Origin: a virus
Taxonomy: Duplodnaviria; Caudoviricetes
IMG/VR virus record: IMGVR_UViG_3300025701_000014
Span: 1-55,423 of that record
Strand: one strand, 5' to 3'
DNA: 55,423 bases
The notes below the pieces were generated by a model, which did not search any database, was not told the origin of the DNA, and worked only from the letters and a program-made list of their open reading frames with translations. Within the stretch, counting starts at the first letter, position 1; each line of letters begins with the position of its first letter. Positions 6,967 to 42,938 of this stretch are shown here, piece by piece. The position numbers were made by a program, and so were the translations under genes.

Positions 6967-6985
6967 CCTATAGGGACTACCGAAG
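6967..6985 (-). promoter_or_regulatory. T7-style promoter motif B (CTTCGGTAGTCCCTATAGG on - strand) facing terL and the head genes
   Basis: Shares TAGTCCCTATAGG with copies at 11716 and 42917; CTATAGG end resembles T7-family promoters. Confidence 0.65.
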
Positions 6986-7101
6986 CTCCTAATAGCACAG
7001 GTACTTACGGGAATACTGTGGGGTTCTGTGGGGATCTAGGGGAACCGAAGGGCTATGCTACAAGAGATTCCCAAAGACCTCTCCAAGCACTCAATTGCGG
7101 G

Positions 7102-7123
7102 AATTCTCGTTAGTCCCTTTAGG
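7102..7123 (+). promoter_or_regulatory. T7-style promoter motif B variant (AATTCTCGTTAGTCCCTTTAGG)
   Basis: 20 of 22 positions match the 42917-42938 copy. Confidence 0.65.
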
Positions 7124-7180
7124 GGTACCCCCGGTACTATATATATATCTATACTTAACCAATGACACTAGGAGACCACT

Positions 7181-7492
7181 ATGTCATACACTTACTACAG
7201 AGCTATGTCCCGAGAGGAATACAGTAGTATCCTTGAGGACAACTATGGTATGCATGATCCTAGAGAAACCTACTGGGCTGATTGTGTATCAGTTGCTAAG
7301 CGTTACCTTAATCCTGAGAGGGTTCTGGTAGAGCTTACTTTGGATAGACCAATCAACCCTGATTACCTTAGGGTAGCTGAGTACGTCTCTAGTAATGGAG
7401 ACAACAACAACCATTACGAGTACTGTATGGCTCGTGATTACTTCTGGAGGGTTGTCCTCCCATCAACATTAGATATTGGAGTAGTAGCATGA
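7181..7492 (+). CDS. Early hypothetical protein
   Basis: AGGAG RBS; first + strand gene. Confidence 0.75.
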   Translation: MSYTYYRAMSREEYSSILEDNYGMHDPRETYWADCVSVAKRYLNPERVLVELTLDRPINPDYLRVAEYVSSNGDNNNHYEYCMARDYFWRVVLPSTLDIGVVA

Positions 7493-7839
7493 AGCCAGTA
7501 GAGATAGCTAATACAATCTTAAAGCAAATACAACATAGTAGGGTTGGTGATAACTCAGGGGCTCTACTAATGATGTGTTGGGGTGTTCACAACATCAGCA
7601 CAGTTGGTAAAGATAAGTACCATTATGGTGGTGTTCAGTTCATGGTTAATGGTTTCAAACACAAAGGTTGGGTAAGTATAAAACTACACTACAACGACTC
7701 ATACACCGTTACGTTCTTAAACAAGTACGATAAGTTCTGTGAGGGTCCCGATGTGTACGAGTATATCTTATACCCAGAGTTAGCTGAGTTCCTAGACAAA
7801 CACATAGAGACAGGTATCAAAGAAGAAGAGGTGTTGTAA
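7489..7839 (+). CDS. Early hypothetical protein
   Basis: ATGA overlap with the previous gene; GGAG RBS. Confidence 0.75.
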   Translation: MKPVEIANTILKQIQHSRVGDNSGALLMMCWGVHNISTVGKDKYHYGGVQFMVNGFKHKGWVSIKLHYNDSYTVTFLNKYDKFCEGPDVYEYILYPELAEFLDKHIETGIKEEEVL

Positions 7840-7955
7840 TGACTAATCAAGAAATAATAGAGCTGTTTGATTCTAGTAATATAACACTGACCGAGCTATC
7901 AGCAATAACTGGTAAAACTGTTAAGCAACTAAAAACAATTTTAATGGGGTTTTAA
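7839..7955 (+). CDS. Small putative HTH protein (38 aa, MTNQEIIELFDSSNITLTELSAITGKTVKQLKTILMGF)
   Basis: GAGGT RBS, TAATG coupling, helix-turn-helix-like pattern; not in the ORF track. Confidence 0.6.
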   Translation: MTNQEIIELFDSSNITLTELSAITGKTVKQLKTILMGF

Positions 7956-7958
7956 GTA

Positions 7959-8126
7959 ATGGATACATATACTTGTTGGAACTGTGGTCGTATTGACCGC
8001 AACGATGTAAACCGAATTGACACACCAACACTAGTTCCCTACGGAGATCAGATGGTTGATCTTGTGTCTTGTGAATATGTATGTAACAATTGCGGATCAG
8101 ATGTAGAGTATGAGCCGATATACTAA
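7959..8126 (+). CDS. Small zinc-ribbon protein (55 aa)
   Basis: CWNCG and CNNCG pairs in the hand translation. Confidence 0.65.
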   Translation: MDTYTCWNCGRIDRNDVNRIDTPTLVPYGDQMVDLVSCEYVCNNCGSDVEYEPIY

Positions 8127-8162
8127 GCCCTGATCCAAACTAATCTTTATAGAGGAAATACC

Positions 8163-8356
8163 ATGGATATCTTAAACGTTTCATTGATGGTCGTCAAACG
8201 ATCTTCAGTATTTACATGATAAGAACGACCCACAAGACTGGGAACGTGGATTACAAAGGCTTCGGGTTAAATACTTTGGCATCGACACATCAAACACATG
8301 TGACGAAAAAACAGCAATTGATCGACATAACAACTAGCAAACAGACGGTGGTTTGA
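8163..8356 (+). pseudogene. Possible frameshifted small gene
   Basis: GAGGA RBS and ATG open only 18 codons, but both other frames stay open to 8337 and 8356. Confidence 0.35.
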
Positions 8357-8381
8357 ACGATAAAAGGAACAAGAGTACAAC

Positions 8382-8397
8382 GCCACGCAAGCGTGTC
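8382..8397 (+). promoter_or_regulatory. Hairpin motif A copy 2, upstream of SSB
   Basis: Exact 16-mer repeat, 54 nt before the SSB start. Confidence 0.7.
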
Positions 8398-8451
8398 GCT
8401 TTATAGCAATTCCCAATTTCGGGACAAACAACATAGAGGAAGGTAGCAATC

Positions 8452-8937
8452 ATGTTAGAATCTCCACGTAATTATTTCATCAAAGAAGCAGAAATTAACT
8501 GGGCACGTCTAGACACACCAGTATCTCCGTTCGGAACTCCACAGTACGAACTGCAAGCTGCAACTGACAATAAGGCTACGGCTAAAGAATGGAAGGAAAA
8601 CCATCTAAACGTAAAAGAGAAAGACGGTAAGTTCATTGTGTCTCTCAAGCGTAAAGCCCGTAAGGCCAACGGTGAAGACAATGGCGCTCCAAAAGTAGTC
8701 AATGCCGATCTGTCTCCATTCGATAAAACAGTGATGATCGGTAACGGATCAACTGCAAACGTTAAGATCTACCAGTACCCATACGATGTAAATGGTAAGA
8801 AGGGTGTTGGCTCATCATTAACAGCTGTGCAATTGGTAAACCTTGTAGAGTACAAGGGTGGCACTAATGACGACTTCGTAGCTTACGAGTCAGAAGGTGC
8901 AGAGCCAGCTGCTAATAAGTCAGACGACTTGTTCTAA
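8452..8937 (+). CDS. ssb: Single-stranded DNA-binding protein (T7 gp2.5-like)
   Basis: PKVV...IGNGSTANV and LTAVQLVNLVEY motifs, acidic tail ending DDLF. Confidence 0.85.
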   Translation: MLESPRNYFIKEAEINWARLDTPVSPFGTPQYELQAATDNKATAKEWKENHLNVKEKDGKFIVSLKRKARKANGEDNGAPKVVNADLSPFDKTVMIGNGSTANVKIYQYPYDVNGKKGVGSSLTAVQLVNLVEYKGGTNDDFVAYESEGAEPAANKSDDLF

Positions 8938-8943
8938 ACCATT

Positions 8944-8974
8944 GGGGGACTCTTCGGGGTCTCCCTTATTCTTT
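8944..8974 (+). terminator. Terminator-like hairpin with cUUCGg loop
   Basis: GGGGGACTC-TTCG-GGGTCTCCC followed by TTATTCTTT. Confidence 0.75.
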
Positions 8975-9008
8975 GAGTAACCGACAAAGGCAAGAATGAG
9001 ATAGACTT

Positions 9009-9158
9009 ATGAATAGATATACAGTTTGGGTTGGTGGTGTTGAAGTAAATGAATACTACATCACCAAAGATGAAGCAGAAAAACTGGCCGCTGTTTATAG
9101 GGCTGAAGGGTACGAAGACGTTTACATTGAAAATGTCCTCATTGTAACAACGAGGTAG
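9009..9158 (+). CDS. Small hypothetical protein (49 aa, MNRYTVWVGGVEVNEYY...)
   Basis: Hand translation; fills the intergenic gap. Confidence 0.6.
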   Translation: MNRYTVWVGGVEVNEYYITKDEAEKLAAVYRAEGYEDVYIENVLIVTTR

Positions 9159-9236
9159 ATGGTGATGAGTGATTTACATTTATTATTCGTAACATCAGTA
9201 GCACTTTATATATACCTCGATCTAACCAAGGATTAA
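9159..9236 (+). CDS. Putative small hydrophobic peptide (23-25 aa)
   Basis: GAGGT RBS; LLFVTSVALYIYL hydrophobic core. Confidence 0.4.
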   Translation: MVMSDLHLLFVTSVALYIYLDLTKD

Positions 9237-9238
9237 TC

Positions 9239-9961
9239 ATGAAACTATTAGATAGAAGTGGTGGTAACACTAAACTAAGGAAGACTAATAACAAAGAAAT
9301 GAAGCTACACTTTGCAGGTCTGTCAATGCACCCAGATGATGCTATATGTGCTGGTGCTAAAGCTGCTGGTTGTATGGATGATTGTCTTAAGGAGTCCGGT
9401 CTTGGTGGTGTTTACCCCAGTGTCAACATTGCACGTAGAGCAAAGACAGACTTCTATCTATCAGATCAGGAAGGCTTCCTTAAGCAGTTACGTAGAGAAC
9501 TTACCAACTACGTTAAATGGTGTGCTAAGAAAGGACTGCACGGTGTGGTTCGCTTAAACGTACTGTCAGACATCCCTTGGGAAACCCATAACATCCCACA
9601 GGACTTCCCGGAGCTTAGCTTCTATGACTATACCAAAGTCGCTAAGAGGTTCCACAAGGGTATGCCTAGCAACTACCAGTTGATGTTCAGCTACAGTGGT
9701 AAGCCTACGTACAAGAAGCAGGTGCTTAGCTTCCTTAAGTCTGGTAGTGATTCCTCTGTTGCTGTTGTCTTCAACCGTAGACCATTCCCAGCTACATTCA
9801 TGGGTCGTGATGTTATAGACGGAGATGCAAGTGATTGGGTCAATGTCAACAACAAGGGTGTAGTTGTAGGTCTGACAGCTAAAGGACCAGCTAAGGGTAA
9901 CGATAATGGGTTTGTTGTAGATGTATCATCAATTCCTGTAATAGCTATTGGAGGTATGTAA
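9239..9961 (+). CDS. Gp88-like conserved phage protein (Cys cluster)
   Basis: C-x7-C-x3-C cluster, VRLNVLSDIPWE and FYDYTK motifs recalled from the phage GP88-like family. Confidence 0.6.
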   Translation: MKLLDRSGGNTKLRKTNNKEMKLHFAGLSMHPDDAICAGAKAAGCMDDCLKESGLGGVYPSVNIARRAKTDFYLSDQEGFLKQLRRELTNYVKWCAKKGLHGVVRLNVLSDIPWETHNIPQDFPELSFYDYTKVAKRFHKGMPSNYQLMFSYSGKPTYKKQVLSFLKSGSDSSVAVVFNRRPFPATFMGRDVIDGDASDWVNVNNKGVVVGLTAKGPAKGNDNGFVVDVSSIPVIAIGGM

Positions 9962-10212
9962 TGAACGGTAAGGGTGACAAGGCAAGACCTTTCGCAGTGT
10001 CCCGTGATGAGTACGAGAATAGGTTCGATGCCATATTCAGAAAGAAAGAAGTAGAGACTACTGTAGACAATGATGAAACACTGTACCAAAGTGACCCTCA
10101 TCCTTTCGCAGAGTGGCTTAAGAAGTGCCCTGTAGAGTTCACTGAAGACTACACAGACAATCATGGTACCCGTGCAGGGTACACCTTTTGGCTTAAAAGT
10201 AACACTAATTAA
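9961..10212 (+). CDS. Hypothetical protein
   Basis: GGAGGT RBS, TAATG coupling; GKGDKARP N-terminus. Confidence 0.7.
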   Translation: MNGKGDKARPFAVSRDEYENRFDAIFRKKEVETTVDNDETLYQSDPHPFAEWLKKCPVEFTEDYTDNHGTRAGYTFWLKSNTN

Positions 10213-10215
10213 AAC

Positions 10216-10455
10216 TTGGAGAAGTATATGTTTAAAGCAAAGCGTTTGTTCAAATTCCGTGTATCTAAGAAGTCCAACGGTCGTATCCGATTCACTGCCC
10301 TAGGTTTCTCAGGTTTCATTGCTTTACGTAAAAAGAAGTCTCGTGGCTATGGACTACAACGTCAATCTACATTCACTCAACTACACATTGGACGCACCTC
10401 TATTGCTCTTGAGCACAACCGTCCAGCTAAACAAGTGTGGAATTTTGCCGGTTAA
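10216..10455 (+). CDS. Basic hypothetical protein (start may be ATG 10228)
   Basis: ORF track; GGAG RBS before ATG 10228. Confidence 0.65.
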   Translation: MEKYMFKAKRLFKFRVSKKSNGRIRFTALGFSGFIALRKKKSRGYGLQRQSTFTQLHIGRTSIALEHNRPAKQVWNFAG

Positions 10456-10459
10456 TACT

Positions 10460-10822
10460 ATGAAAGTCTTCGTCTATTATAACTTACGTAAGAAGTGTTT
10501 CAGCGTGAAGGCATTAGAAGGTGCTGACAAAGGGCGTGTGGTCAAACATGCGTCCTCTGTCATCCTCACTAATGTAACCTTCAAGGTATCAGAAGCAGGT
10601 AGACAAAGGGTTCTCAGAGACAAGCAGAAGAATGTACATGCAGGTGCTCAAGGCACATTATGCTCAACTGACATTCCATTCGCTTGGGTAACAGCGAGAC
10701 CTAGATCAGCCACATACAATCCTTATGATAACAAGACTTTCATTGATGTAGAAACTAAACAACCGGTACTGTCATCTGACATGGTTGAGTTGACCAATCG
10801 TAAAGTATTCTATAAGGGCTAA
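10460..10822 (+). CDS. Conserved hypothetical phage protein (MKVFVYYNLRKKCFSV...)
   Basis: FKVSEAGRQRVLRDKQKNVHA and TYNPY motifs recalled from many phages; non-overlapping start at 10460. Confidence 0.7.
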   Translation: MKVFVYYNLRKKCFSVKALEGADKGRVVKHASSVILTNVTFKVSEAGRQRVLRDKQKNVHAGAQGTLCSTDIPFAWVTARPRSATYNPYDNKTFIDVETKQPVLSSDMVELTNRKVFYKG

Positions 10823-10823
10823 C

Positions 10824-10898
10824 ATGCTTGTAATAGCGACCGCAATCTTCATCATAGTATTACACTTAGTAATAATAACATCAATATTAAGAGGCTAA
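10824..10898 (+). CDS. Small single-TM peptide (24 aa)
   Basis: MLVIATAIFIIVLHLVIITSILRG, packed 1 nt from both neighbours. Confidence 0.55.
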   Translation: MLVIATAIFIIVLHLVIITSILRG

Positions 10899-10899
10899 T

Positions 10900-11070
10900 A
10901 TGAGTAAAGACGAATCAATAATCGACATATTGTTAGACAGGGGTATAATCCAAGACTTACGAAACGACATGGAAGACATCAACGATATGTACTTCGCACA
11001 ACTGATTATGGAAGCTGTCCGAGACGCAGAAGAAGCACTCAACTCTTTCAACGGTGATGAAGACTTCTAA
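10900..11070 (+). CDS. Small acidic protein (56 aa)
   Basis: GAGG RBS; 16 Asp/Glu versus 4 Lys/Arg. Confidence 0.7.
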   Translation: MSKDESIIDILLDRGIIQDLRNDMEDINDMYFAQLIMEAVRDAEEALNSFNGDEDF

Positions 11071-11079
11071 GAGGTGTAC

Positions 11080-11226
11080 ATGAAATATGTAAAAAGAGTG
11101 GTGCGATACCTCGTCTTGATACCGCTGGCATTTGGATTAGATCTAGTTTACTCAGTTCTAAAGCAAATAGATGGTGCCATAGAGAAAATATTTGATACCT
11201 TAAATCAGTGGACTACGGAGGACTAA
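11080..11226 (+). CDS. Small hypothetical protein (48 aa)
   Basis: GAGGTG RBS; hand translation MKYVKRVVRYLVLIPLAFGL... Confidence 0.65.
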   Translation: MKYVKRVVRYLVLIPLAFGLDLVYSVLKQIDGAIEKIFDTLNQWTTED

Positions 11227-11228
11227 TC

Positions 11229-11492
11229 ATGAATGACGAATCATTACCTTACGAGTACAAAGAAGAACTCCGGCAGCTATGCACAGATGCCTATCGTGAA
11301 GCAGCAATGATCGCTAAGGATTACACGGAGTCACTGGCAGCCTCCTTGCTTGACTATTATATAAAAGAGTCAGAATCAATAACATCAAAATACGTAGATG
11401 AAATACCCTCAGGAGAGCTAGCGTTAATCCTGAAGACAATACGTGAAGAGTTAAAGAACGATATCGATGAAGGAATCCGTGACAATGTATAG
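11229..11492 (+). CDS. Acidic hypothetical protein (87 aa)
   Basis: GGAGGA RBS before ATG 11229. Confidence 0.7.
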   Translation: MNDESLPYEYKEELRQLCTDAYREAAMIAKDYTESLAASLLDYYIKESESITSKYVDEIPSGELALILKTIREELKNDIDEGIRDNV

Positions 11493-11619
11493 TATCCTAT
11501 TAGGTTTATGCGTGATCTGTGGTGTAACCTTTATCCTCACAGGGTCTAATGCAGCGCTAATGGGTTGGTCTATGACCGGCCTAGCATTGATCTCTGGTTC
11601 AATACTAATCAGTTTGTAG
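11485..11619 (+). CDS. Small two-TM membrane protein (44 aa)
   Basis: MYSILLGLCVICGVTFILTGSNAALMGWSMTGLALISGSILISL has no charged residues. Confidence 0.55.
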   Translation: MYSILLGLCVICGVTFILTGSNAALMGWSMTGLALISGSILISL

Positions 11620-11624
11620 CCCCC

Positions 11625-11665
11625 AAGGGAGTCCCTAGGTTTTTCCTAGTGGCTCCCTTATTTTT
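11625..11665 (+). terminator. Terminator-like hairpin ending the early small-gene block
   Basis: AAGGGAGTC-CCTAGG...CCTAG-TGGCTCCCTT stem followed by ATTTTT. Confidence 0.7.
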
Positions 11666-11715
11666 AGGTAACCGACAAAAAGCATTGCGGCTTTCCCCCG
11701 CAGATCTCCTAAAGA

Positions 11716-11734
11716 TCTCGCTAGTCCCTATAGG
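11716..11734 (+). promoter_or_regulatory. T7-style promoter motif B (TCTCGCTAGTCCCTATAGG)
   Basis: 19 of 19 identical to the reverse complement of 42917-42935. Confidence 0.75.
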
Positions 11735-11750
11735 ACAACATTAGACCTAC

Positions 11751-11766
11751 GCCACGCAAGCGTGTC
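11751..11766 (+). promoter_or_regulatory. Hairpin motif A copy 3
   Basis: Exact 16-mer repeat, directly behind motif B at the head of the replication operon. Confidence 0.7.
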
Positions 11767-11794
11767 GTTATTAAGAGATTACAAAGGAGACTTT

Positions 11795-12193
11795 ATGACA
11801 GCAAGAAAGATACACCCTAATAGTTTACTTAACTTAGCACCTAGATTTAATGAGGAAAGCGCTAAGCAGGCTCAGGCTGCATCTGTAGCAGCCCGTAAGG
11901 TAAACACAGAAGCACGTAAGCGTCTTGCGTTAACAGCCGCAGAACTCAAAATGGACGTGCAAGAACTAATGCAGGCCAACAACCTGACTGCGCTGGATGT
12001 ACTTCGTCTTTCCATGGTTAAGGCTATGGCTAATAACGATATAGACCAAGCTGTTGATATCGCAAAAGCACTAGCAGAGTTTGAGACTCCAAAGCTTGGC
12101 CGTGTAGAACAGACCAACCTAGAACTCTCAACAGAAGATATGTCTGATGAAGAGCTTAACAAAAGACTTCAAGAACTTCTTAAAAAGGACTAA
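11795..12193 (+). CDS. Putative terminase small subunit-like protein
   Basis: AAGGAG RBS; HPNSLLNL N-terminal motif, helical body and MSDEEL C-terminus as seen in many TerS-like proteins; no TerS candidate next to terL. Confidence 0.5.
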   Translation: MTARKIHPNSLLNLAPRFNEESAKQAQAASVAARKVNTEARKRLALTAAELKMDVQELMQANNLTALDVLRLSMVKAMANNDIDQAVDIAKALAEFETPKLGRVEQTNLELSTEDMSDEELNKRLQELLKKD

Positions 12194-12195
12194 TT

Positions 12196-12441
12196 ATGTA
12201 CTACAAGGTTTATGGTAAGAATGGCTGTGAGTACTGCACGTTAGCCGTTGAGTTACTGGAAGTACTACGTAAGGATTACATATACTTGGTGTTAGATGAG
12301 GACTTTCCTCTCTCAGACTTCAAGAGTATCTTCCCAGATGCTACAACAGTGCCTCAGATAATCACAGTTAGCAACACCGAGGTCACCAAGATAGGTGGCT
12401 ATGATCAACTTAGAGAACTACTAGTAGGGCCAACAGCATGA
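12196..12441 (+). CDS. Glutaredoxin
   Basis: CEYC active site, TTVPQI and IGGY motifs. Confidence 0.9.
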   Translation: MYYKVYGKNGCEYCTLAVELLEVLRKDYIYLVLDEDFPLSDFKSIFPDATTVPQIITVSNTEVTKIGGYDQLRELLVGPTA

Positions 12442-12812
12442 GCATAAACGATGCAACACCATCAGATTGGAACAAAGCAGCAGAAGCTGTAAAGTCCCAA
12501 GAGCTTAAAGAAAGAGAACGACTACGTGGTAAGTGGTCACGTTGGTGTGTAACTGAAGAGGAAATAACTGATATGATGCCAGACACACCCATTGTGAAGA
12601 AGGAGGACGTTGTTAACAGCCCGTCACACTACAATACAGGTGGTATCGAGGCAATCCAAGCTATCGAAGCCAGCATGTCTAAGGACGCCTTCCAAGGGTA
12701 CCTCAAGGGCAACTGTATGAAATACCTTTGGCGTATGTCATACAAAGGTAAGGCTAAAGAGGACCTCCTCAAAGCCCAGTGGTACCTCAACAGATTGATT
12801 GAGACAATCTAA
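12438..12812 (+). CDS. DUF3310 / T7 gp1.7-like nucleotide kinase domain protein
   Basis: DVVNSPSHY, GNCMKYLWR and EDLLKAQWYL motifs. Confidence 0.85.
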   Translation: MSINDATPSDWNKAAEAVKSQELKERERLRGKWSRWCVTEEEITDMMPDTPIVKKEDVVNSPSHYNTGGIEAIQAIEASMSKDAFQGYLKGNCMKYLWRMSYKGKAKEDLLKAQWYLNRLIETI

Positions 12813-13126
12813 TGGATAAGTCCAGCCATGAGTACAAGTCTCAGTACGATAGAGCATTCCGGAGGAAAAGATGGAGAATGATCTTTAAGTACTTTGGTGG
12901 TAAGAAATGTCAAGATTGTGGTGTTGAATCCGAGCATCCAATCTATGACCTCCACCATAGAGAGCCCTCGGCTAAAGACTTCTCTATTGGTGCACTAATA
13001 CGTAGAAAGTGGGAAGTATTGGAGCCTGAGATAGCTAAATGTGACCTGTTATGCTCTAATTGTCACAGAATTAGGCATGATATCGAGAGAAAACAACAAC
13101 GAGAGGTATCAAATGGAAGTAATTAA
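12812..13126 (+). CDS. HNH endonuclease
   Basis: CQDC...LHHR...CDLLCSNCHRIRH. Confidence 0.85.
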   Translation: MDKSSHEYKSQYDRAFRRKRWRMIFKYFGGKKCQDCGVESEHPIYDLHHREPSAKDFSIGALIRRKWEVLEPEIAKCDLLCSNCHRIRHDIERKQQREVSNGSN

Positions 13127-13349
13127 GGGTGATTTCGGTAAGACTCCTGAAGCAGAGCCAAAGAAACTGCTTGACTTACTACATGAAGCACTAGCAAGTG
13201 CTGGTATTGATGAAAATACAGTGGGTAAGTTCATACTAATTGCAGAAGTTGAAGGTGATGATGATGATTTCAAGATAATGACTGCTTATGACACCATGGA
13301 AACCAATTACATCATGGATGTAAGCAAATTCTCCTTCTTAGGGTACTAA
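13113..13349 (+). CDS. Hypothetical protein (MEVIKGDFGK...)
   Basis: GAGGT RBS before ATG 13113. Confidence 0.7.
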   Translation: MEVIKGDFGKTPEAEPKKLLDLLHEALASAGIDENTVGKFILIAEVEGDDDDFKIMTAYDTMETNYIMDVSKFSFLGY

Positions 13350-13418
13350 TAGTACCACAACAACCTACAAACTAAGCTAAGCCTAACCCAATAATGGGTG
13401 GCACTCAAAGGAATTTAC

Positions 13419-15251
13419 ATGAAACTTGTATTTGATATAGAAAGTAACGGTTTACTGGAAGAAATCTCTACCATTTGGTGTATCGTATGCCAGAATGTGG
13501 ACACTAAAGAGGTTATTTCCTTCTCAGACCATGATGATTCACTACAAAGTATCCAAGCTGGCCTTGATTATCTTCAGGCAGCTGACATTCTCATCGGTCA
13601 CAACATCATTGGCTACGATATACCTGCAATAAAGATAGTTACAGGGGTTGACTTGCTAGATAAGAAGTGCTACGACACACTGATCATGTCCCAAATGTTA
13701 CGCTATAAGCGTACCCACCGCCATGGTTTGAGAGGCTGGGGTGAAAAACTTGGGGATAACAAGATAGACTACAACGACTGGACAAAGTATACAAAGGAAA
13801 TGCTTGAGTACTGCATTCAAGATGTCAGTTTGAACGTTAAAGTGTACGAGAAACTAGTCGAAGAGTTCCAAGTGTTACACGCACCCTTCCCACTGATAGC
13901 TAAAGGTCTAGAAGTAGAGCATGACGTTGCTAAATTCAACACAATTGTTAGGGAACAAGGTTGGAACTTTGACACTGTCAAGGCTAAGGCCACCTTAAAG
14001 ATGCTCAAGGACAGAGCAAAAGAGATTGAAGACACCATTGAACCCCAGCTTGGGACCCATAAGCAGTACATCGATAAAGAACCGAAGACTGCAAAGTTCA
14101 AGAAGGACGGTACTTTCACTACGGTAACTGTAAGGTTACTGTCAGAATACTTTGGTCGTGAGATATTACCAACTGACACACACGTGATCAACGTAGGTCA
14201 AACCTTCCAACGATCTATTGTAAAACAAACTAAGCTAGGTCAGCTAGATATGGTTAAGGACTGGCTGTTAAGTATTGGTTGGAAACCAGATGATTACACC
14301 CGTAAGAAAACCCCAAATGGTTGGGTTAATGTTGGACCTAAGTTCACAGAAACTTCCCTTAGTAAACTAGGAGAGGTTGGCACCATGCTCGGTGAGTACT
14401 ACACCCTGAGGAACAGAATCAGTGTTATTGAAAGCTGGATCGAGGGCCTTAAGGATGGTCGTATACATGGTAACATGTGGACTATCGGCACCCCCTCCTT
14501 CAGGGCACGCCATGAGGTTATCGTGAACCTCCCCGGGGTCCATGCAACATACGGCAGGGAGCTTCGTGAATTGTTTGCTGCTGATGAGGGTGATCTTATT
14601 GTGGGTGCAGACTCAAGCGGTAACCAGCTTAGGGGCCTGTGTCATTACGTAAACAACAAAGAGTTTACCCAAGAGGTTATTTATGGTGATCAACATCAAC
14701 GTAACGCAGATGCCCTTGGGTGTTCTCGTTCAGTTGCAAAGTCTTTCCTATATGCATACCTCTTTGGTGCCGGTGATGCTAAGCTTGGTCAGGTGCTAAC
14801 AGGTAAGTCGAATGCTAACGTTGGTAAGAAAGCACGGGATGACTTTAGTAGTGCAATCCAAGGGTTGTCTATGATCAAGAACAAAGTGGAGGGTGAGTGG
14901 AATAGGAAGAACGCTACTCAAGGTGCTGGATGGGTACATGGTCTAGATGGTAGACCAGTGTTTATCAACTCAGAACATCAGTGTCTGAACTACTTACTGC
15001 AATCCGCAGAAGGTATCACTTGTAAGGCAGCAGTGTCCTATCAAATGAAAAAGATTAAAGAGGAAGGTCTCCGGGCTAAACCTAGAATCTTCTATCATGA
15101 TGAGACGGCGTGGTCTGTACACCCAGATGATGCTGAAAGGGTTGGTCAGATACTTAAGGATAGCTTTAAAGAAGCACCTAAGTGGTTTGGCATTGAGTGC
15201 ATGGATGGTGGTGATCCAATGATCGGTACAACCTATGCAGACGTACACTAG
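13419..15251 (+). CDS. polA: DNA polymerase family A (T7 gp5-like) with 3'-5' exonuclease
   Basis: FDIES and GHNIIGYD exonuclease motifs; motif A DSSGNQLR, motif B RSVAKSFLYAYLFG, motif C YHDE. Confidence 0.95.
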   Translation: MKLVFDIESNGLLEEISTIWCIVCQNVDTKEVISFSDHDDSLQSIQAGLDYLQAADILIGHNIIGYDIPAIKIVTGVDLLDKKCYDTLIMSQMLRYKRTHRHGLRGWGEKLGDNKIDYNDWTKYTKEMLEYCIQDVSLNVKVYEKLVEEFQVLHAPFPLIAKGLEVEHDVAKFNTIVREQGWNFDTVKAKATLKMLKDRAKEIEDTIEPQLGTHKQYIDKEPKTAKFKKDGTFTTVTVRLLSEYFGREILPTDTHVINVGQTFQRSIVKQTKLGQLDMVKDWLLSIGWKPDDYTRKKTPNGWVNVGPKFTETSLSKLGEVGTMLGEYYTLRNRISVIESWIEGLKDGRIHGNMWTIGTPSFRARHEVIVNLPGVHATYGRELRELFAADEGDLIVGADSSGNQLRGLCHYVNNKEFTQEVIYGDQHQRNADALGCSRSVAKSFLYAYLFGAGDAKLGQVLTGKSNANVGKKARDDFSSAIQGLSMIKNKVEGEWNRKNATQGAGWVHGLDGRPVFINSEHQCLNYLLQSAEGITCKAAVSYQMKKIKEEGLRAKPRIFYHDETAWSVHPDDAERVGQILKDSFKEAPKWFGIECMDGGDPMIGTTYADVH

Positions 15252-15260
15252 GAGAGTGTT

Positions 15261-16190
15261 ATGAATGATAAACCATTACAAATATTAATTGATGCCGACT
15301 CGATATACTTCAGGATAGCCATGGCCACAAAGAAAGAAAAGGACATGCGTGTTAATATCAAGAAATCCCTGATGACTATCGAGAACGAGTGTGCTCTGTT
15401 CGGTGATACCCTGTTACGGATAGCTGTTAAAGGGAAGGGGAACTTCCGACACAACATTGCGGAAAACTATAAGGGTAACCGTAAGCGTGAGTTAGATCCC
15501 TCTGAAAAGAAAGCACTGGCTTACGGGCATAGGCACATGGTAGAGCACCATGGTGCAATTATGGCAGACGACATGGAGGCTGATGATCTAGTCTCTATCT
15601 GGGCGTGGGAGTGTATAGCTAACGGGGATCCATACGTTGTTGTGCACATCGATAAAGATCTTAATATGATTCCCGGACAACACTATAACTTTGTTAAGAA
15701 TGATTATTACTTTGTTTCTTTTGAAGAAGCACACTTGAACTTTATGCTTCAGTGTCTTACAGGAGATGCTATTGACAACATTCCCGGGGTTAAGGGGATT
15801 GGACCTAAGAAGTCCCAAAAGTTACTAGAGAACTGTCCCTTTGATAGACGATGGCAAACTGTAAGAAACAAATGGAAAGATAAGAAACAATTAGAAACAT
15901 CTGCAAGACTTTTGTGGATGGCGACATCCTTTGAGGAAGCCGAGGGTGCCAATGCATCCTTAATGGAGTACATAGGCAACAACTCTGTAGAGTCCTTCTG
16001 GGGTCTCTCTAAGAACAAGGAGGCTAGTGTAGATGAAGAACAAACACATGGTGAAACCCCTGAGTGCGAACAAGATGTTTGCGAAGAAGGGGAAGACGAC
16101 ATTCAAGACAGCGGATTACAAGAGGTATCAGGAGGAGATCCGGGACGATATGATGGGGGTAGTGTGGCCATTCGGAGAGAACCAAGTTGA
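15261..16190 (+). CDS. 5'-3' exonuclease (T7 gp6 / flap nuclease family)
   Basis: LIDADS, YKGNR, EADD, DKDL and GDAIDNIPGVKGIGPK motifs. Confidence 0.92.
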   Translation: MNDKPLQILIDADSIYFRIAMATKKEKDMRVNIKKSLMTIENECALFGDTLLRIAVKGKGNFRHNIAENYKGNRKRELDPSEKKALAYGHRHMVEHHGAIMADDMEADDLVSIWAWECIANGDPYVVVHIDKDLNMIPGQHYNFVKNDYYFVSFEEAHLNFMLQCLTGDAIDNIPGVKGIGPKKSQKLLENCPFDRRWQTVRNKWKDKKQLETSARLLWMATSFEEAEGANASLMEYIGNNSVESFWGLSKNKEASVDEEQTHGETPECEQDVCEEGEDDIQDSGLQEVSGGDPGRYDGGSVAIRREPS

Positions 16191-16389
16191 GTTCACCATC
16201 GAGGGTGGTATGTCTAACAGAGGTGCTGACCTTGACAATATAATCAAACCAATCTTAGATACCTACCAAGGTATCTTTGAGGAGTTCAATGACAACAAAG
16301 TGTACCACATAGAACTCACCAAGAAAATCGTTAAGAAAGGTGAGGAGTATATCAGTGTACATATCAAAGAACTAGAGAGTGTTACATGA
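16033..16389 (+). CDS. RusA-like Holliday junction resolvase
   Basis: PLSANK and ADLDNIIKPILD...NDNKV motifs. Confidence 0.8.
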   Translation: MKNKHMVKPLSANKMFAKKGKTTFKTADYKRYQEEIRDDMMGVVWPFGENQVEFTIEGGMSNRGADLDNIIKPILDTYQGIFEEFNDNKVYHIELTKKIVKKGEEYISVHIKELESVT

Positions 16390-16550
16390 AAAGAATAAAG
16401 CTTAAGGGTGGTGATGAGTATGATGTCCACACTAGTTGGAGGAAACTCATCAGACCATCCAAGGGCATGATCAAACGTGCAAAGAGAACCTATAACAAAC
16501 GGTTCCGCAAGGAATGTAATGATCAAACCATTAAGGGTTTGGAGGAATGA
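16386..16550 (+). CDS. Small basic hypothetical protein (54 aa, MKRIKLKGGDEYD...)
   Basis: ATGA overlaps at both ends; hand translation. Confidence 0.7.
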   Translation: MKRIKLKGGDEYDVHTSWRKLIRPSKGMIKRAKRTYNKRFRKECNDQTIKGLEE

Positions 16551-16735
16551 TCGATATGAGAGTTAAAATGTATAAACTAGTACAAGAGATAGTCGAATCG
16601 GGTATTGAGTCTGGGTACAATCGGGCACATAAGCACACCGACAGCCCTTGTGATGAAACAATTAAACAGTGCATTGAACAATACATAATGAATGGCTTTG
16701 ATGAAGCATTTGAATTTAATAAAGAGGATATATAA
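16547..16735 (+). CDS. Hypothetical protein
   Basis: GGAGG RBS; GYNRAHKHTDSP motif. Confidence 0.7.
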   Translation: MIDMRVKMYKLVQEIVESGIESGYNRAHKHTDSPCDETIKQCIEQYIMNGFDEAFEFNKEDI

Positions 16736-16737
16736 TA

Positions 16738-18624: not shown

Positions 18625-18748
18625 ACAACATGCAGCCGATGATGTGGTGTTGGGTGTGTTATCTTTGAGACAAGCCTGCGCTAAATACAACTTAACCAAA
18701 GAAGAAATCTTGGAGGTCATCTCTAAGATTCTAGATGTTGAAGAATAA
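18611..18748 (+). CDS. Small putative HTH protein (45 aa)
   Basis: GGAG RBS; LSLRQACAKYNLTKEEI resembles a helix-turn-helix. Confidence 0.5.
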   Translation: MRLSKQHAADDVVLGVLSLRQACAKYNLTKEEILEVISKILDVEE

Positions 18749-18758
18749 ATAAACCAAA

Positions 18759-18788: not shown

Positions 18789-18801
18789 AACATTTAAGGA
18801 A

Positions 18802-19125: not shown

Positions 19126-19129
19126 GTAC

Positions 19130-23052: not shown

Positions 23053-23062
23053 GGAGATTATT

Positions 23063-31402: not shown

Positions 31403-31413
31403 GTTGTTGTCCT

Positions 31414-33708
31414 CTATGTTTGTTTATTCAATCTATCAATTGACCAAGTTAAGAATGCGTTAGATCCCTCTATGGCTTTATCTTCCCAGTTTGCTCTTTC
31501 AGCATCACTCAAGCTTCTCCAAATTATAGCAAGGTTGTTTAAAACGACCTGTTGGTCTCCTCCACGCCTTGCTCCCTTTTGGCTCAATGTATTATACAAA
31601 GTGCTTACTTGTTCGGGGTTTGGGTTTCCAGCATACAAAGTGTCCTTTAGCTGAGGAGAAATGTCTTGAGCTACAAGATCCCGAAGAACCATCTTAATTA
31701 CTTGAGGATCTTCCAGATTAACATCAGGGCTTCTTGCCCTGAGCGCTTTCATTCCATCTAAAACAGTTGGCAAAAGATCTGTCATCTGTCCGGGATCCAT
31801 CTTGTTATCAAGAGAATACTGGACCATCGCATTAGCAACAGCTGTTGGGGAGAAGGTTGGATCAAGTCTCTCATTCTTCTTTTTACCCTGAGCTGATTCC
31901 ATTTGAGATTTAACCTCCTTGAGCTGTGGTAGCAAAGTGTCCATAGCATAATTACGCATAGACTTGTAATCCTCAAATGTATTAAACTCTGAGACATCCA
32001 CGGGCTTCCCCTTTTGGTCAAGCCATTGGACAACACCTGTGTTGGCGTCTTTATACTCCCTAAGCTTAACTTGTCTTTGATCCTTATCTACAAAGACTTT
32101 AGGCAAATCCACTGGAGCCCATGCAGGCTTTAACTTAAGGTCGGCTACATCACCTGTATCTTTATATTTCTTAAGGCTATCTGGAGTATACTTTGCAGTG
32201 CCTGTCAGTTTATCTACAGTGGCTAATTTCTTTTCAATACCAGAAGCATAACGCTTAGTTACATAGTCTAAAGAACCACCATGACTATTACCCAGAAGGC
32301 GTGAACCAAGGTACATGACAGCCGCCTCAGATAACTTGTCCTTATCAATGATAGAAGACAGACCTTCCTTAAAGAAGTCCTTAACTTTGTCAAGAGCTGT
32401 TGGTGGAAGTGCTCCCTCTTTCTTTTTCCCATCGCCTTCCCCTAACAATTCCCGTTGTTGCTTTTCAGCTTCTTCAGCTATCTTAATAGCTTCATCTTCA
32501 TCTAAAGTGATTTCAGGCTTAGGTGTTTCAAGCTCAGGTTTATTAATAGTGTTCACATCAATCTCAACACGATAAGGATCAACTGGGGGCATCACCCCCT
32601 CTTCAGCAAGAGAAGGTACAGCCTGTTCTTTATCAAGGGCTTCCCTTTCTCGCCACGCCTTAGGTTTATATATATCCTTAAGACTCTCAATAATATTAGA
32701 TTGACTTGGATAACCAGCCGCCTTAGCTTCTTGACGTCTAGATAAAGCCTGTTCGGCCATTTGTTGAGCAACATTACCCATAGGTTTCAGAAGGGGGCCA
32801 TCAGGTTCTGGTATAGATATTGGTGGGTTATTAAGAGAGTCAACTGCTGTCATCCCCAATGCCTTCTTAACTATCTCTTCCTGAGAAGGAACTGAACCAA
32901 GACCAAGACTATCTAAATAATCAAAATCAACAGAGACCCCTTGACCCTTGGGGATATCTGCAGGCTCAAAATCAACAGAGAACTCTTGACCCTTGGGGAT
33001 ACCTACAGGCACTGGGACGGCTAGCTGCTCTACAATAGTTGGGTCGTTTAATACAACTGAAAGATCTTCAGCAGTAGCGCCCTTTTGTAAAGCCTCTACA
33101 ATTTTATCTTGTAGTTGATTATATGCAAAATCAGACTCAATTGCTTTGTAATCCTCTGGGCGCAGTACAGCTCCACCCTCTGCTAAATATTTATCTGATA
33201 AACTATTCAACACGAGGCCCCCAAGAATAGACCCCAGCCCGGAACCTGACTTAAGCAACTCAAGGATCATGTTCTTGTTACTATTATCATCATCTTTTTT
33301 ATAGCGATTAGAATACTCTTGCATCTCACCACCAACTTCACCACCTTCATTGTGGTATCTTTCCTTAACGCCGCCACCACATGCCCGATAGTCAGGTATG
33401 CTTCCACCCTGTGCTTTCTGAACTGCTCTGCCAACATCATTCATTTGTTCTATCTGAGGCTCAAACATCCTAGTGGCCTCTGCATTCATTACAAACTCGC
33501 CGGGTGTTAACCAAGCGGGTACAGTGTCTGTTCCTTTAGGTTCACCCGGAAAGTCAGGTACACCAGTCAGTTGGGGTATAGCAATCCCACCAAGGAACTG
33601 TTCAATAATCTTTGAGGAACGAGAGTCCCCCTGTGCAGAGTCCGTACCGAACTCAATAGACACTTGAGATCCGTGTCTATCCTTGTGCATAATTTTCTTA
33701 ATACTCAT
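31414..33708 (-). CDS. Putative internal virion protein
   Basis: Position in the cluster; GTDTVPAWLTPGEFV motif and repeated xxGGxV motifs. Confidence 0.6.
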   Translation of the reverse strand: MSIKKIMHKDRHGSQVSIEFGTDSAQGDSRSSKIIEQFLGGIAIPQLTGVPDFPGEPKGTDTVPAWLTPGEFVMNAEATRMFEPQIEQMNDVGRAVQKAQGGSIPDYRACGGGVKERYHNEGGEVGGEMQEYSNRYKKDDDNSNKNMILELLKSGSGLGSILGGLVLNSLSDKYLAEGGAVLRPEDYKAIESDFAYNQLQDKIVEALQKGATAEDLSVVLNDPTIVEQLAVPVPVGIPKGQEFSVDFEPADIPKGQGVSVDFDYLDSLGLGSVPSQEEIVKKALGMTAVDSLNNPPISIPEPDGPLLKPMGNVAQQMAEQALSRRQEAKAAGYPSQSNIIESLKDIYKPKAWREREALDKEQAVPSLAEEGVMPPVDPYRVEIDVNTINKPELETPKPEITLDEDEAIKIAEEAEKQQRELLGEGDGKKKEGALPPTALDKVKDFFKEGLSSIIDKDKLSEAAVMYLGSRLLGNSHGGSLDYVTKRYASGIEKKLATVDKLTGTAKYTPDSLKKYKDTGDVADLKLKPAWAPVDLPKVFVDKDQRQVKLREYKDANTGVVQWLDQKGKPVDVSEFNTFEDYKSMRNYAMDTLLPQLKEVKSQMESAQGKKKNERLDPTFSPTAVANAMVQYSLDNKMDPGQMTDLLPTVLDGMKALRARSPDVNLEDPQVIKMVLRDLVAQDISPQLKDTLYAGNPNPEQVSTLYNTLSQKGARRGGDQQVVLNNLAIIWRSLSDAERANWEDKAIEGSNAFLTWSIDRLNKQT
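32921..33001. repeat. 36-bp direct repeat with 45-bp period inside the CDS
   Basis: 32921-32956 versus 32966-33001 differ at 2 positions; encode IPKGQxxSVDF. Confidence 0.85.
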
Positions 33709-40701: not shown

Positions 40702-42869
40702 TACCTACGACCTCCTTTCTTGACCTCTAGTTGAATGCCAGATATTTTCCAGTTATCTCCCACATTAGCTTCATCAGTAATTCTGTAGCTAAGCAGCCTG
40801 CCTGTTAATCTCGCATCTGTTTTATAATCACTACCGATAGTAAACAATGGGTTTGTGCTGTTACCAGCAACACCATTACCTGTTAACGGGTTAGATGTAA
40901 GGGACGCACCGGGTGCATCTGTAGATCTAAACCTTAATCTTATTGGAAGCTCAGCATCGATATCCTTACCCGCCCAGAGTGCAACAGAGGACAGTGACTC
41001 TACATCAAACTCAGGGTTCATCGGGGCTTCTAAACGCTCAACATAAGACTCATAATTAGCATTGTTTATATCAGTATACTTGTTATTAAAGTCTGCACCA
41101 TACACATCACCATTAAGAACAAACAACGGTCTTGAAACGCTGGGATCTATTGTGTCAGACAATGTACCATTGTTGTAAAGGAACTTGGTGTACCCTGAGA
41201 TTCCATAAGAAGCCTCAGTCATCACTCTTCGAGACCACACATTATCTTCATAGTTAAAGACCAGTATCTCATTTAAGTTACCAATAGAGGATAGTAGATT
41301 TGGGAAACAAACCCAAAGCTCATCGTCTGCTGTGTTGTTAAGGATAATTGTATAAGCTGCATATGTTGGGTTTATATTATCAAAGAAGTAATCTCGGACC
41401 CTGTTGTTAGAAATAGACTTAATACTTGCAGGATGCCCAGAGAACTGATAGATGTCATCAGACCCAATTACAATATGTGTACCTTTAAATTCATGAACCA
41501 TGTCTATACCCAAAGCACCATGCGTTGAACTGACAATACTTGAGATGTACGGTGTCAAGGTGCTTGAGGTTTTACTTAAAGCATGGATAGAGTTATTTGT
41601 ATAAACATAAAGGTTGCCTTGCATTTGAACAAGGTCTTGAATAATACCTGTGGTGGAAAGAGTGAACTCTTCCGCTGTGGATACACCAGCGCTGTACGGG
41701 TTCCAGTTGTGTGGGATAGCACCTGCTTCAGCAACATCAGAGATTCTAACAACCCCCGGTTGATTCCGTATAGCTGTACCACTACTTAAGATTGTGTACC
41801 GTGTGCTTGAGTATGTACCTGTAGGTAAATCATCAACAGTAACTTGAGTAGTACTGTTAACGTTATTAACTGTGTATCTCCCCTTAGCAAACGAAGGAGA
41901 GTTTATTTGGATCACATCACCAATAGATAGTCCATGCTCAGATGCAAAAGCAAGTGTGTTGTTTACATCATTAACACTAGCAACAGTAGGTGCATTAATC
42001 TCAATTAAATTACCAGCAACTAAAACATCACCCCAAGATCTGATAACACCTGCTCGAACCTGAACAGTTGCAATAGATCTGATACTGATAACAACAGTGT
42101 CGCCAGACTTTAAGAACTCTGTAAAGGCAGGGATGCCACCGGGTGCTGTTGCAATAGTTACGATATGTGTGTTTGTAGTTGGGTCTAAAGAAGTAGTCGC
42201 TTGAGCAACAGTAGTAACGCTAGTCAATGTAACAGAAAACTTAGTGCTGCTATTTACACTACTTAAAACTGTAACTACAACTTCTTCTAAATCAAAGTTA
42301 ACAGTACGGCCTAGGTCAAACTCGGCAACATGAAGACCAGCATCAAACACGTCATTCAGTGCTTCTTCATTTGTATAGTAAGAATCCCAACCCGGAAGCT
42401 CAAAAGCATCAAGGGTTGTCATGTCTGTATTACCAGTTGCGTCAAGGACATACCACGGTCGAGCTACACCGTTGTTCAATACAACAGCATAACCACCTTG
42501 GAAAACTGTGTGTTGCCAGACACCCCCAGTGGGTACTTCGATTCCTAAAAACCTTGTGTTACCATCACTAGCCCTGAGAGCGTATGCACGATCAAGGGTT
42601 CCATCAGTAGCAACTACAACGTAGTAGCCATCAGTGGGTGTCAGGTTTGGGTTTGCCCAATCAACGATGTGTATCAGATTACCTACAATTGGGTCTCCAG
42701 AGTAAGCCGTAAATAACTTTGCTTCCCCGGGCATCTTTTCCACACAACCATTATTAAACCTAACATTAAGTACGTCACTGAAAGCGTTGGTAGGTAATGC
42801 AATAGCAGGCGTGTCTTTAACTAATCCAACAGTGTTTAGTCCTACAATAGGGACAACTTGCTCTGTCAT
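40701..42869 (-). CDS. Tail nozzle / stabilisation protein (P22 gp10 or tail tubular B-like)
   Basis: 722 aa beta-rich, NVRF near the N-terminus, FNYEDNVWS, C-terminal GGRR. Confidence 0.7.
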   Translation of the reverse strand: MTEQVVPIVGLNTVGLVKDTPAIALPTNAFSDVLNVRFNNGCVEKMPGEAKLFTAYSGDPIVGNLIHIVDWANPNLTPTDGYYVVVATDGTLDRAYALRASDGNTRFLGIEVPTGGVWQHTVFQGGYAVVLNNGVARPWYVLDATGNTDMTTLDAFELPGWDSYYTNEEALNDVFDAGLHVAEFDLGRTVNFDLEEVVVTVLSSVNSSTKFSVTLTSVTTVAQATTSLDPTTNTHIVTIATAPGGIPAFTEFLKSGDTVVISIRSIATVQVRAGVIRSWGDVLVAGNLIEINAPTVASVNDVNNTLAFASEHGLSIGDVIQINSPSFAKGRYTVNNVNSTTQVTVDDLPTGTYSSTRYTILSSGTAIRNQPGVVRISDVAEAGAIPHNWNPYSAGVSTAEEFTLSTTGIIQDLVQMQGNLYVYTNNSIHALSKTSSTLTPYISSIVSSTHGALGIDMVHEFKGTHIVIGSDDIYQFSGHPASIKSISNNRVRDYFFDNINPTYAAYTIILNNTADDELWVCFPNLLSSIGNLNEILVFNYEDNVWSRRVMTEASYGISGYTKFLYNNGTLSDTIDPSVSRPLFVLNGDVYGADFNNKYTDINNANYESYVERLEAPMNPEFDVESLSSVALWAGKDIDAELPIRLRFRSTDAPGASLTSNPLTGNGVAGNSTNPLFTIGSDYKTDARLTGRLLSYRITDEANVGDNWKISGIQLEVKKGGRR

Positions 42870-42916
42870 TGGATACCTCCATAATTACTTATTATCATTA
42901 ATGTTCCCCCTCTCGT

Positions 42917-42938
42917 CCTATAGGGACTAGCGAGAATT
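42917..42938 (-). promoter_or_regulatory. T7-style promoter motif B (AATTCTCGCTAGTCCCTATAGG) driving nozzle, tail, ejection and second RNAP genes
   Basis: In an 86-nt intergenic gap, oriented toward the ATG at 42869. Confidence 0.78.

Follow-up and report, generated by a model that had tools for sequence, protein, structure and literature searches.

How a phage genome that encodes its own RNA polymerases (RNAPs) divides transcription between them, and how that transcription could begin, is the question raised by IMG/VR record IMGVR_UViG_3300025701_000014, a stretch of 55,423 nucleotides (nt) from an uncultured marine phage. The whole of this stretch was analyzed, and it is called the window below. 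The window encodes a T7-like single-subunit RNAP of 694 amino acids (aa) and a second, divergent RNAP of 1128 aa, and it carries several copies of a short element, motif B, that resembles a T7-family promoter. An earlier, sequence-only reading had taken motif B to be a separate promoter class for late genes. We favor a different arrangement, which we regard as reasonably well founded: motif B would be the single promoter class of the 694-aa RNAP and would serve both arms of the genome, and an ejected 1128-aa RNAP would start the cycle.

When motif B was searched as the 19-mer TCTCGCTAGTCCCTATAGG, the window had four matches with three or fewer mismatches, where 0.02 are expected; none of 100 shuffles reached four. 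The copies lie exactly at the places that the sequence-only reading had given, and the search yielded no others at this threshold. The bare 13-nt core is unspecific when three mismatches are allowed (18 matches in the window versus 14.9 expected). Therefore, we consider only these four copies to be real:

42917-42938 (19-mer 42917-42935), minus strand: exact copy, AATTCTCGCTAGTCCCTATAGG; putative internal late promoter at the boundary between the holin gene and the block of tail, ejection-protein and second-RNAP genes; 48 nt to ATG 42869
11716-11734, plus strand: exact copy; within the replication arm, before a conserved 132-aa gene and DNA-replication genes; about 60 nt to ATG 11795
7102-7123 (19-mer 7105-7123), plus strand: variant with two mismatches (CTTTAGG for CTATAGG); head of the replication arm; 58 nt to ATG 7181
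6967-6985, minus strand: variant with three upstream mismatches and an exact core; head of the late arm (terminase, portal, scaffold, capsid); 287 nt to terminase ATG 6680

Perfect identity between the two exact copies reaches 21 nt, and an AAT extension is found at 42936-42938 and 7102-7104. All four copies are intergenic and oriented toward the next gene, and those at 7105 and 6967 stand back-to-back, about 120 nt apart, between two divergent arms:

7181-24008, plus strand: early and replication genes (SSB, DNA polymerase A, exonuclease, RusA, class II ribonucleotide reductase, MazG, primase-helicase, 694-aa RNAP, ThyX)
6680 through the window junction down to 24054, minus strand: a single unbroken run of late genes, in the order terminase, SU10-type portal, scaffold, capsid, adaptor, 2279-aa fiber, lysozyme, holin, tail proteins, and the 764-aa, 1319-aa and 1128-aa proteins

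The genome, about 55.27 kb long, is complete in the window and circularly permuted, as concluded from a terminal repeat and a split gene: bases 1-153 recur at 55271-55423 with 99% identity, and the SU10-type capsid gene is divided between the two ends. The IMG/VR label is "linear".

As the sequence-only reading had stated, the two minus-strand copies head late blocks (6967 before the terminase and 42917 before the tail genes), and the second of these blocks ends with the gene of the other RNAP. However, the copies at 7105 and 11716 enter the replication arm, and this layout recurs in relatives, so that the idea of a separate late-gene class is not supported. With copies on both arms, motif B marks middle and late genes alike, all of them presumably read by the T7-like RNAP. 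The oriented, intergenic copies and the presence of a T7-like RNAP in the same genome support the proposal that motif B behaves as a T7-style promoter.

The window represents a podophage of the CRP-7 type. Its closest cultured relative is Roseobacter phage CRP-7 (MK613349), whose RNAP, gp30, is 34.5% identical to the 694-aa enzyme (E 2e-113) and whose gene order equals that of the window. Ten whole IMG/VR contigs (G001 to G010) and the CRP-7 record give 11 tabulated relatives, or 12 tabulated genomes with the window; G009 is 80% complete and G010 is a fragment. Parts of three further contigs (G011, G012 and G013) were used as fragments. Promoter and hairpin classes, as well as the covariation of enzymes and promoters, were judged by eye across the 12 tabulated genomes and three fragments. 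By an unbiased tally of repeated 11- to 12-mers, most genomes were found to have a related motif; in the others it emerged from targeted searches. Each relative examined has its own version of the motif, at homologous places and on both strands:

The window, G009 and G011: CTAGTCCCTATAGG
G013: TAGTCCCTTTAGG
G012: TAGTCTCTATAGG
G003, G004, G006 and G007: TAAGTTCCTTATAG
G002, G008 and G010: TATACCCCTTATAG
G005: ATAAGTCCCTTTAG
G001: TGTAACCCTTATGG
CRP-7: TAGTCCCCTATTAAAAGG

The CRP-7 motif, TAGTCC(C/A)(C/T)TATTAAAAGG, occurs in five copies distributed over both arms. Unique copies with no more than one mismatch number four to seven per complete genome, three in G009 and one in G010, and the three fragments have copies like those of the window. 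Reversed patterns used as controls gave zero or one match at two or fewer mismatches. A 3' box, CC(C/T)T(A/T)TAG, is common to six promoter groups, and the part upstream of it is clade-specific. Promoters of the T7 group consist of a binding region and an initiation region (PMC4496689), and a shared 3' box joined to a varying upstream part fits this division.

The positions of these copies are also conserved. TerL is preceded by a copy in 11 of the 12 tabulated genomes, the remaining contig (G010) having no TerL, and likewise in fragment G013. Ten relatives have a copy before the tail block (G009, G011, G002, G008, G010, G003, G004, G006, G007 and G005), and a copy precedes the homologue of the 132-aa gene in all nine tabulated genomes that have this gene in the replication region. 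Other copies lie at the replication-arm head or close to it. Copies are directed into that arm in 11 of the 12 tabulated genomes (10 of the 11 relatives), the exception being G010, whose contig lacks most of the arm; fragments G012 and G013 agree. The TTTAGG form of the 7105 copy is standard in G005 and G013. Across genomes, 10 to 290 nt separate a copy from the start codon, with 443 nt at the terminase copy of G009; in CRP-7, one copy lies 10 nt before the gene of the T7-like RNAP.

Two smaller observations concern the surroundings of the motif. The 132-aa protein (11795-12193, plus strand) is conserved, cysteine-free and always accompanied by its own motif B copy, and an Atlas search with it returned only unnamed viral clusters. 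In G002, G005 and G008, its gene is inverted, such that its promoter faces the replication-arm promoter 50 to 65 nt away and the 5' ends of the two transcripts are predicted to overlap. Also, just downstream of the terminase copy in G009 (L102; 43401-43435, minus strand) are three tandem 13-nt repeats and one variant, each containing the 3' half of the promoter (TCCCTATAGG); these could be decoy or pausing sites.

The two polymerases are as follows:

20968-23052, plus strand: T7-like single-subunit RNAP of 694 aa in one open reading frame (ORF); proposed reader of motif B
24054-27440, minus strand: divergent single-subunit RNAP of 1128 aa, here termed vRNAP (putative virion RNAP); closing gene of the late arm, in the block headed by the 42917 copy

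The 694-aa protein is readily recognized, with a match to Pfam family RNA_pol (PF00940) at E 4.2e-57 (cut-off 22 bits) and phmmer matches in PDB to T7 RNAP (E 4e-30) and yeast mitochondrial RNAP (E 4e-33). The 1128-aa protein matches phrog_414 at E 3e-7. It has no match in Pfam, none by tblastn against 50,697 phage records and none in PDB by phmmer sequence or profile search. Because such searches were unproductive, a fold search was needed. An AlphaFold2 (AF2) model (predicted local distance difference test, pLDDT, 79.2; predicted template-modeling score, pTM, 0.78) was compared by using Foldseek, which found T7 RNAP (E 1.2e-16), mitochondrial RNAPs and the complex of N4 mini-vRNAP with its promoter (3c3l_A, E 1.1e-13), with a best query template-modeling score of 0.47. 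About 240 residues at the start of the protein are disordered. There are 74 PDB matches at E ≤0.001, and all among the matches listed are T7, mitochondrial or N4 RNAPs.

In an alignment of 34 homologues, D656 (in DGKTNG), K740, Y748 and G749 (in K..MTFGYGK) and D951 (in YDAFK) are invariant. We take the regions of D656, of K740/Y748/G749 and of D951 to be catalytic motifs A, B and C of T7-type polymerases. Judged by these residues and by the predicted fold, the 1128-aa protein is a true single-subunit RNAP, and the sequence-only reading was right to place a second RNAP at the end of the 42917 block. An hhalign comparison of the 1128-aa family with the 694-aa RNAP had a probability of 4.9% and, although the catalytic motifs aligned, is not used as evidence. 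The family includes, besides the 34 aligned homologues, 236 representative clusters (E ≤0.001) and 69 IMG/VR loci, with members of 1085 to 1385 aa. A first profile suggested that CRP-7 lacks a second RNAP, an idea that was dropped when a broader profile aligned CRP-7 gp33 over catalytic motifs B and C (YGK to HDA), weakly, at E 7e-6 among 75 ORFs.

Which of the two enzymes reads motif B was considered by comparing promoters and polymerases across relatives. In the 694-aa RNAP, the residues aligned with T7 RNAP 725-883 are identical or nearly so inside each promoter group and differ between groups; they presumably include the specificity loop, which we take to be residues 739-770 of T7 RNAP. 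The vRNAP does not follow the promoters in this way. In the window, G009 and G011, which have a common promoter core, the 694-aa RNAPs are 76-85% identical, whereas the vRNAP of the window is just 37-38% identical to the other two. G006 has the promoter of G003, G004 and G007, but its vRNAP is 46-47% identical to theirs. G002, G008 and G010 share one promoter and have vRNAPs that are 36-38% identical, two of the three with an insert of about 130 aa between catalytic motifs B and C. Since the vRNAP is out of step with the promoter groups, we assign motif B to the 694-aa enzyme, which is probably its reader. The vRNAP is among the fastest-changing proteins of these phages (38% identity between the window and G009, where most proteins are 65-90% identical), and its divergence could be due to diversifying selection or to cassette exchange.

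The insert itself, present in the vRNAPs of G008 and G010, may be an anti-defense domain carried on the ejected polymerase. In G010 (L103; 3770-7927, minus strand), vRNAP residues 967-1074 match NADAR (PF08719) weakly, at E 1e-4 and 23 bits, below the 35-bit cut-off.

If the 694-aa RNAP reads motif B, promoters of its own class precede its gene, and thus another agent must start the cycle, for which the vRNAP is the best candidate. Directly upstream of the vRNAP gene are two others:

27443-33708, minus strand: 1319-aa and 764-aa proteins, likely ejection or internal virion proteins

The 1319-aa protein matches phrog_6958, "virion structural protein", at E 6e-28, and the order 764-aa protein, 1319-aa protein, vRNAP is kept in each relative examined. 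The vRNAP of the window contains no cysteine, and the same is true of 10 of 11 genome copies, 33 of the 34 alignment members and five of five further homologues. Its neighbors contain none (1319-aa protein) and one (764-aa protein), and CRP-7 has three cysteine-free giant proteins, gp33-35, at the equivalent place. The 694-aa RNAP of the window has 12 cysteines and each of its counterparts in relatives has 7 to 14; cysteine makes up 1.3-2.2% of the replication enzymes of the window. The injected vRNAP of phage N4 is reportedly free of cysteine as well, which has been connected with its way through tail and periplasm (PMC3821669), and the gene for this protein (gp50) lies within an ejection-protein cassette (PMC13434306). 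By its composition and gene neighborhood, the 1128-aa RNAP is probably made late, packaged and ejected with the DNA.

The only other repeated family of 9-mers or longer in the approximately 3 kb of intergenic DNA of the window is a short hairpin, GCCACGCAAGCGTGTC, with four exact copies:

6869-6884, plus strand: copy 1 (GCCACGCAAGCGTGTC); in the divergent control region
8382-8397, plus strand: copy 2; 56 nt before the SSB gene
11751-11766, plus strand: copy 3; 17 nt after the 11716 copy of motif B and 30 nt before ATG 11795
19130-19145, plus strand: copy 4; after MazG and upstream of a small ORF, the primase-helicase gene and the 694-aa RNAP gene (1.8 kb)

The sequence-only reading had supposed that the virion RNAP reads another element, motif A, and so makes the 694-aa RNAP. 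A second repeated element is indeed found on the replication arm, with one copy 1.8 kb before the 694-aa RNAP gene; that it equals motif A is our assumption.

G009 has three copies at places matching those in the window (in the control region, after the promoter of the 132-aa gene and after MazG), and there are at least one in G011, at least three in G012 and at least five in G013. The hairpins were searched with a rule that demands a perfect 5-base-pair (bp) stem ending in C, a loop of 2 to 3 nt and the flank T[CT][GT][CT]T[TA]. This rule found 17 sites in 186 kb, compared with 0.42 in mononucleotide shuffles (maximum, one) and one in reversed sequences. Sixteen of the 17 are one class in five genomes, all on the strand of the replication arm, and a start codon follows 12 of the 16 by 16 to 67 nt. 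The flanks are invariant and the stems vary, with both sides changed in four of the five stem pairs; that pairing is 100% is not evidence, because the rule requires it. In other clades, short hairpins with the template-strand loop GAA occur in G001 (four in tandem), G002 and G008.

Promoters of the N4 vRNAP are extruded template-strand hairpins with a G..A triloop, in which the stem ends at -5 and a 4-nt spacer leads to the start (PMC4496689). In the present phages, it is placement that argues for a promoter: the hairpins are restricted to the replication arm and lie upstream of genes, one in G013 immediately follows a true terminator, and in G009 a hairpin precedes the early genes ahead of any other element, at a place that lacks motif B. 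G009 and G011, with hairpins of the same type, have vRNAPs that are 70% identical. The window also shares hairpin features with G012 and G013, yet the vRNAPs of the window and G012 are only 33% identical. As a promoter for the ejected polymerase, the hairpin is the strongest candidate, although we propose it tentatively and with somewhat more doubt than confidence. An intrinsic terminator seems unlikely, given the 5-bp stem, the lack of a U-run in G001, G002 and G008 and the position after a true terminator in G013.

Transcription might then proceed as follows. The ejected polymerase would act on the hairpins, which lie on the replication-arm strand only, and thereby start the cycle. From the control region, the 6967 and 7105 copies of motif B would fire outward into the late and replication arms, respectively, and the internal copies at 11716 and 42917 would restart transcription before the DNA-replication genes and before the block of tail, ejection-protein and vRNAP genes. 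The vRNAP, made late from the end of the 42917 block, would be packaged and ejected with the DNA into the next host.

Independence from host RNAP is plausible on this scheme. Sigma-70-like sites are not enriched in the window (26 versus 38.5 ± 6.0, and 30 versus 36.4 ± 5.9), and no such site is among the matches listed for the control region, 6681-7180. Terminator-like hairpins with GC-rich stems of 9 to 11 bp follow the SSB gene (8944-8965, plus strand) and the capsid gene (54989-54964, minus strand). A third, identified by eye, is at about 11625-11665 (plus strand; AAGGGAG...CTCCCTT, then ATTTTT), just before the 11716 promoter. In a metatranscriptome run, 0.17 of the sampled words were present, and 13 short contigs of depth 2 to 4, which carry no start or strand information, lie over 5000-24900. 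An RNA contig has its end at 6955, which is 13 nt away from the start presumed for the 6967 copy; we draw nothing from it. Separately, in G007 (L094 and L096; 50-560 and 56890-57400), an element of about 45 nt with a sigma-70-type look, TTGCTGTTTCATAAACACTTAAC...CTATATCT, occurs in four to five copies, before each early gene, so that early transcription may differ between clades.

Several points weigh against the scheme. The promoter groups are clades, and hence the match between promoters and the loop of the 694-aa RNAP is confounded by descent; the argument then depends on the vRNAP as the outlier, and a few conserved residues could preserve the specificity of the latter. With gp33 of CRP-7 matched to the vRNAP family, there is no natural "one-polymerase" control. 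The hairpin loop of the window is 2 nt, unlike the G..A triloop of N4, the hairpin class was not found in G005 or in the clade of G003, G004, G006 and G007, and the element may instead act at the RNA level or as an operator. About 12 kb of late genes, from 54935 down to 42956, lie behind the strong terminator after the capsid gene with no motif B copy of their own. A good sigma-70-like site (11 of 12 matches) at 10922-10949 on the plus strand makes some host transcription conceivable. Finally, the RNA data amount to sparse, low-depth contigs from one run, without 5' ends.

In an alternative arrangement, the ejected 1128-aa RNAP itself would read motif B, alone or along with the 694-aa RNAP, and the hairpins would be RNA-level or regulatory elements. 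Only one promoter class, conserved in all clades, would then be needed, and clades with no hairpin class found would pose no difficulty. The start-up problem would be solved directly, the copy 10 nt before the T7-like RNAP gene of CRP-7 would be in a suitable place, and by E-value the model of the 1128-aa protein lies no further from T7 RNAP than from N4 vRNAP. However, the promoter core stays fixed while the vRNAP falls to 36-47% identity and gains an insert between catalytic motifs B and C, and both arms would fire at injection, which leaves no temporal order unless DNA entry imposes one. We therefore judge this arrangement unlikely.

A late-only motif B read by the 694-aa RNAP, with early and replication genes transcribed solely from another motif by the virion RNAP, appears to us more improbable still. 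It would suit the hairpins, which cover the replication arm, as well as the fact that one of the two exact copies is the internal late promoter, and at the replication-arm head there is a variant copy (CTTTAGG, two mismatches) that might be weak or inactive. But the other exact copy, at 11716, enters the replication arm, TTTAGG is the normal form in G005 and G013, and the copy at the head of the replication arm is exact in seven relatives (G001 57377, G002 58444, G003 13159, G004 42018, G006 14119, G007 56325 and G008 10136).

That motif B is no promoter at all, and instead binds a regulator, acts as a signal in packaging or replication or marks a site of processing, is very improbable. The tandem repeats of G009 indicate that part of the sequence can sit in a non-promoter array, but the orientation of the motif always agrees with the downstream gene, at the distances from start codons given above, it heads both arms and precedes conserved gene blocks in every clade, and a T7-like RNAP is encoded in the genome.

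A single promoter class for the 694-aa RNAP, with start-up by an ejected vRNAP, can be compared with known systems. N4 infection begins with an injected single-subunit RNAP, which is succeeded by another phage RNAP belonging to the T7 family (PMC7145618, PMC13434306). A cysteine-free polymerase among ejection proteins, together with a hairpin class, is a variation on this two-polymerase scheme. N4 and the Schitoviridae employ gp50, RNAPII and then host RNAP. The catalytic domain of N4 vRNAP, residues 998-2103 (PMC13434306), is about the size of the 1128-aa enzyme, and the N4 protein likewise is reported to be cysteine-free and belongs to an ejection-protein cassette; its promoters are short DNA hairpins. 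In contrast, the enzyme of the window has no giant N- or C-terminal domains like those on either side of the RNAP domain in the ~3,500-aa N4 protein, and no detectable sequence match to N4 gp50; lengths of 2,842-3,820 aa have been used as a filter for N4-type vRNAPs (PMC10654107). The second RNAP of the window is one chain of 694 aa, whereas that of N4 is a gp15/gp16 heterodimer that depends on an ssDNA-binding cofactor. The late genes of the window have a phage promoter, motif B heading the late arm, and those of N4 have host promoters. The head genes are of SU10 type, and the genome is 55 kb versus about 70 kb.

The window resembles T7 and the Autographiviridae in having a duplex-type motif of about 20 bp whose last part is a T(A/T)TAG box immediately ahead of the presumed start, in the way that the variable upstream part of the promoter tracks the specificity-loop region of the RNAP, and in placing DNA-metabolism and virion genes under what would be one RNAP class. 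It differs in its RNAP, which has only approximately 23% identity to enzymes of the Autographiviridae and is some 190 aa shorter than T7 RNAP with its 883 aa, and whose gene occupies the distal end of the replication arm, with its own promoters upstream. Moreover, there are two divergent arms, with no evident host-type early promoters at their heads.

CRP-7, which grows on host FZCC0042, was the sole cultured relative found. It agrees with the window in gene order, in a related motif on both arms and in its cysteine-free gp33-35, and differs in its initiation box and in the weakness of the match between gp33 and the vRNAP family. Those parts of the description of CRP-7 that were available name ORF30 as the only RNAP and give no promoters (PMC6918029). 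A full-text literature search, which did not extend to supplements, turned up no report on CRP-7-type phages that describes these motifs or a second single-subunit RNAP.

The RNAPs of phiKZ-type jumbo phages are multisubunit enzymes related to cellular RNAP. These phages have two phage RNAPs, one of them packaged, and transcription that is independent of host RNAP (bioRxiv 10.1101/2023.09.14.557509). The window is similar in having two phage RNAPs and differs in that both are single-subunit enzymes of T7 type.

The textbook example of an injected single-subunit RNAP comes from N4-type phages. A family that pairs a T7-like RNAP with a cysteine-free polymerase of 1.1 to 1.4 thousand aa among its ejection proteins would show the injected-polymerase strategy outside the Schitoviridae and without giant flanking domains. 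An N4-focused metagenome survey dropped vRNAP relatives shorter than 2,500 aa (PMC10654107), and therefore would have missed the 1128-aa family. In the sections available of a 2026 account, N4 vRNAP and a crAss-like enzyme are the only encapsidated phage RNAPs to have been characterized structurally (PMC13434306). It is possible, although we offer this more as conjecture, that a widespread clade of marine podophages uses a compact, host-RNAP-independent N4 strategy, in which an ejected "mini-vRNAP" of about 1,100 aa reads hairpins with 5-bp stems on the replication arm and makes a T7-like RNAP, which in turn reads both arms, including the vRNAP gene. Because CRP-7 can be cultivated, start-up with the RNAP gene behind its own promoter and the generality of hairpin promoters for ejected polymerases are open to test. 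If the scheme is true, the clade also provides at least six natural promoter specificities with matched enzymes, and thus diverged RNAP/promoter pairs for orthogonal expression.

Two further features of the window are repetitive. The control region is rich in short repeats, with four copies of CTGTGGGG (6715, 6940, 7016 and 7026, plus strand) and two of CTTCTCAGAGG, and the control regions of relatives (G003, G004, G007, G009 and G013) have dense arrays of CTGTGAG or CTGTGGG and of TCTCTCAG at the equivalent place. These repeats could be iterons, regulator sites or a packaging signal. The 2279-aa tail fiber (45805-52644, minus strand) contains long arrays with a 21-nt period, especially at 51104-52434, and a C-terminal Peptidase_S74 chaperone domain, both of which are usual for fibers.

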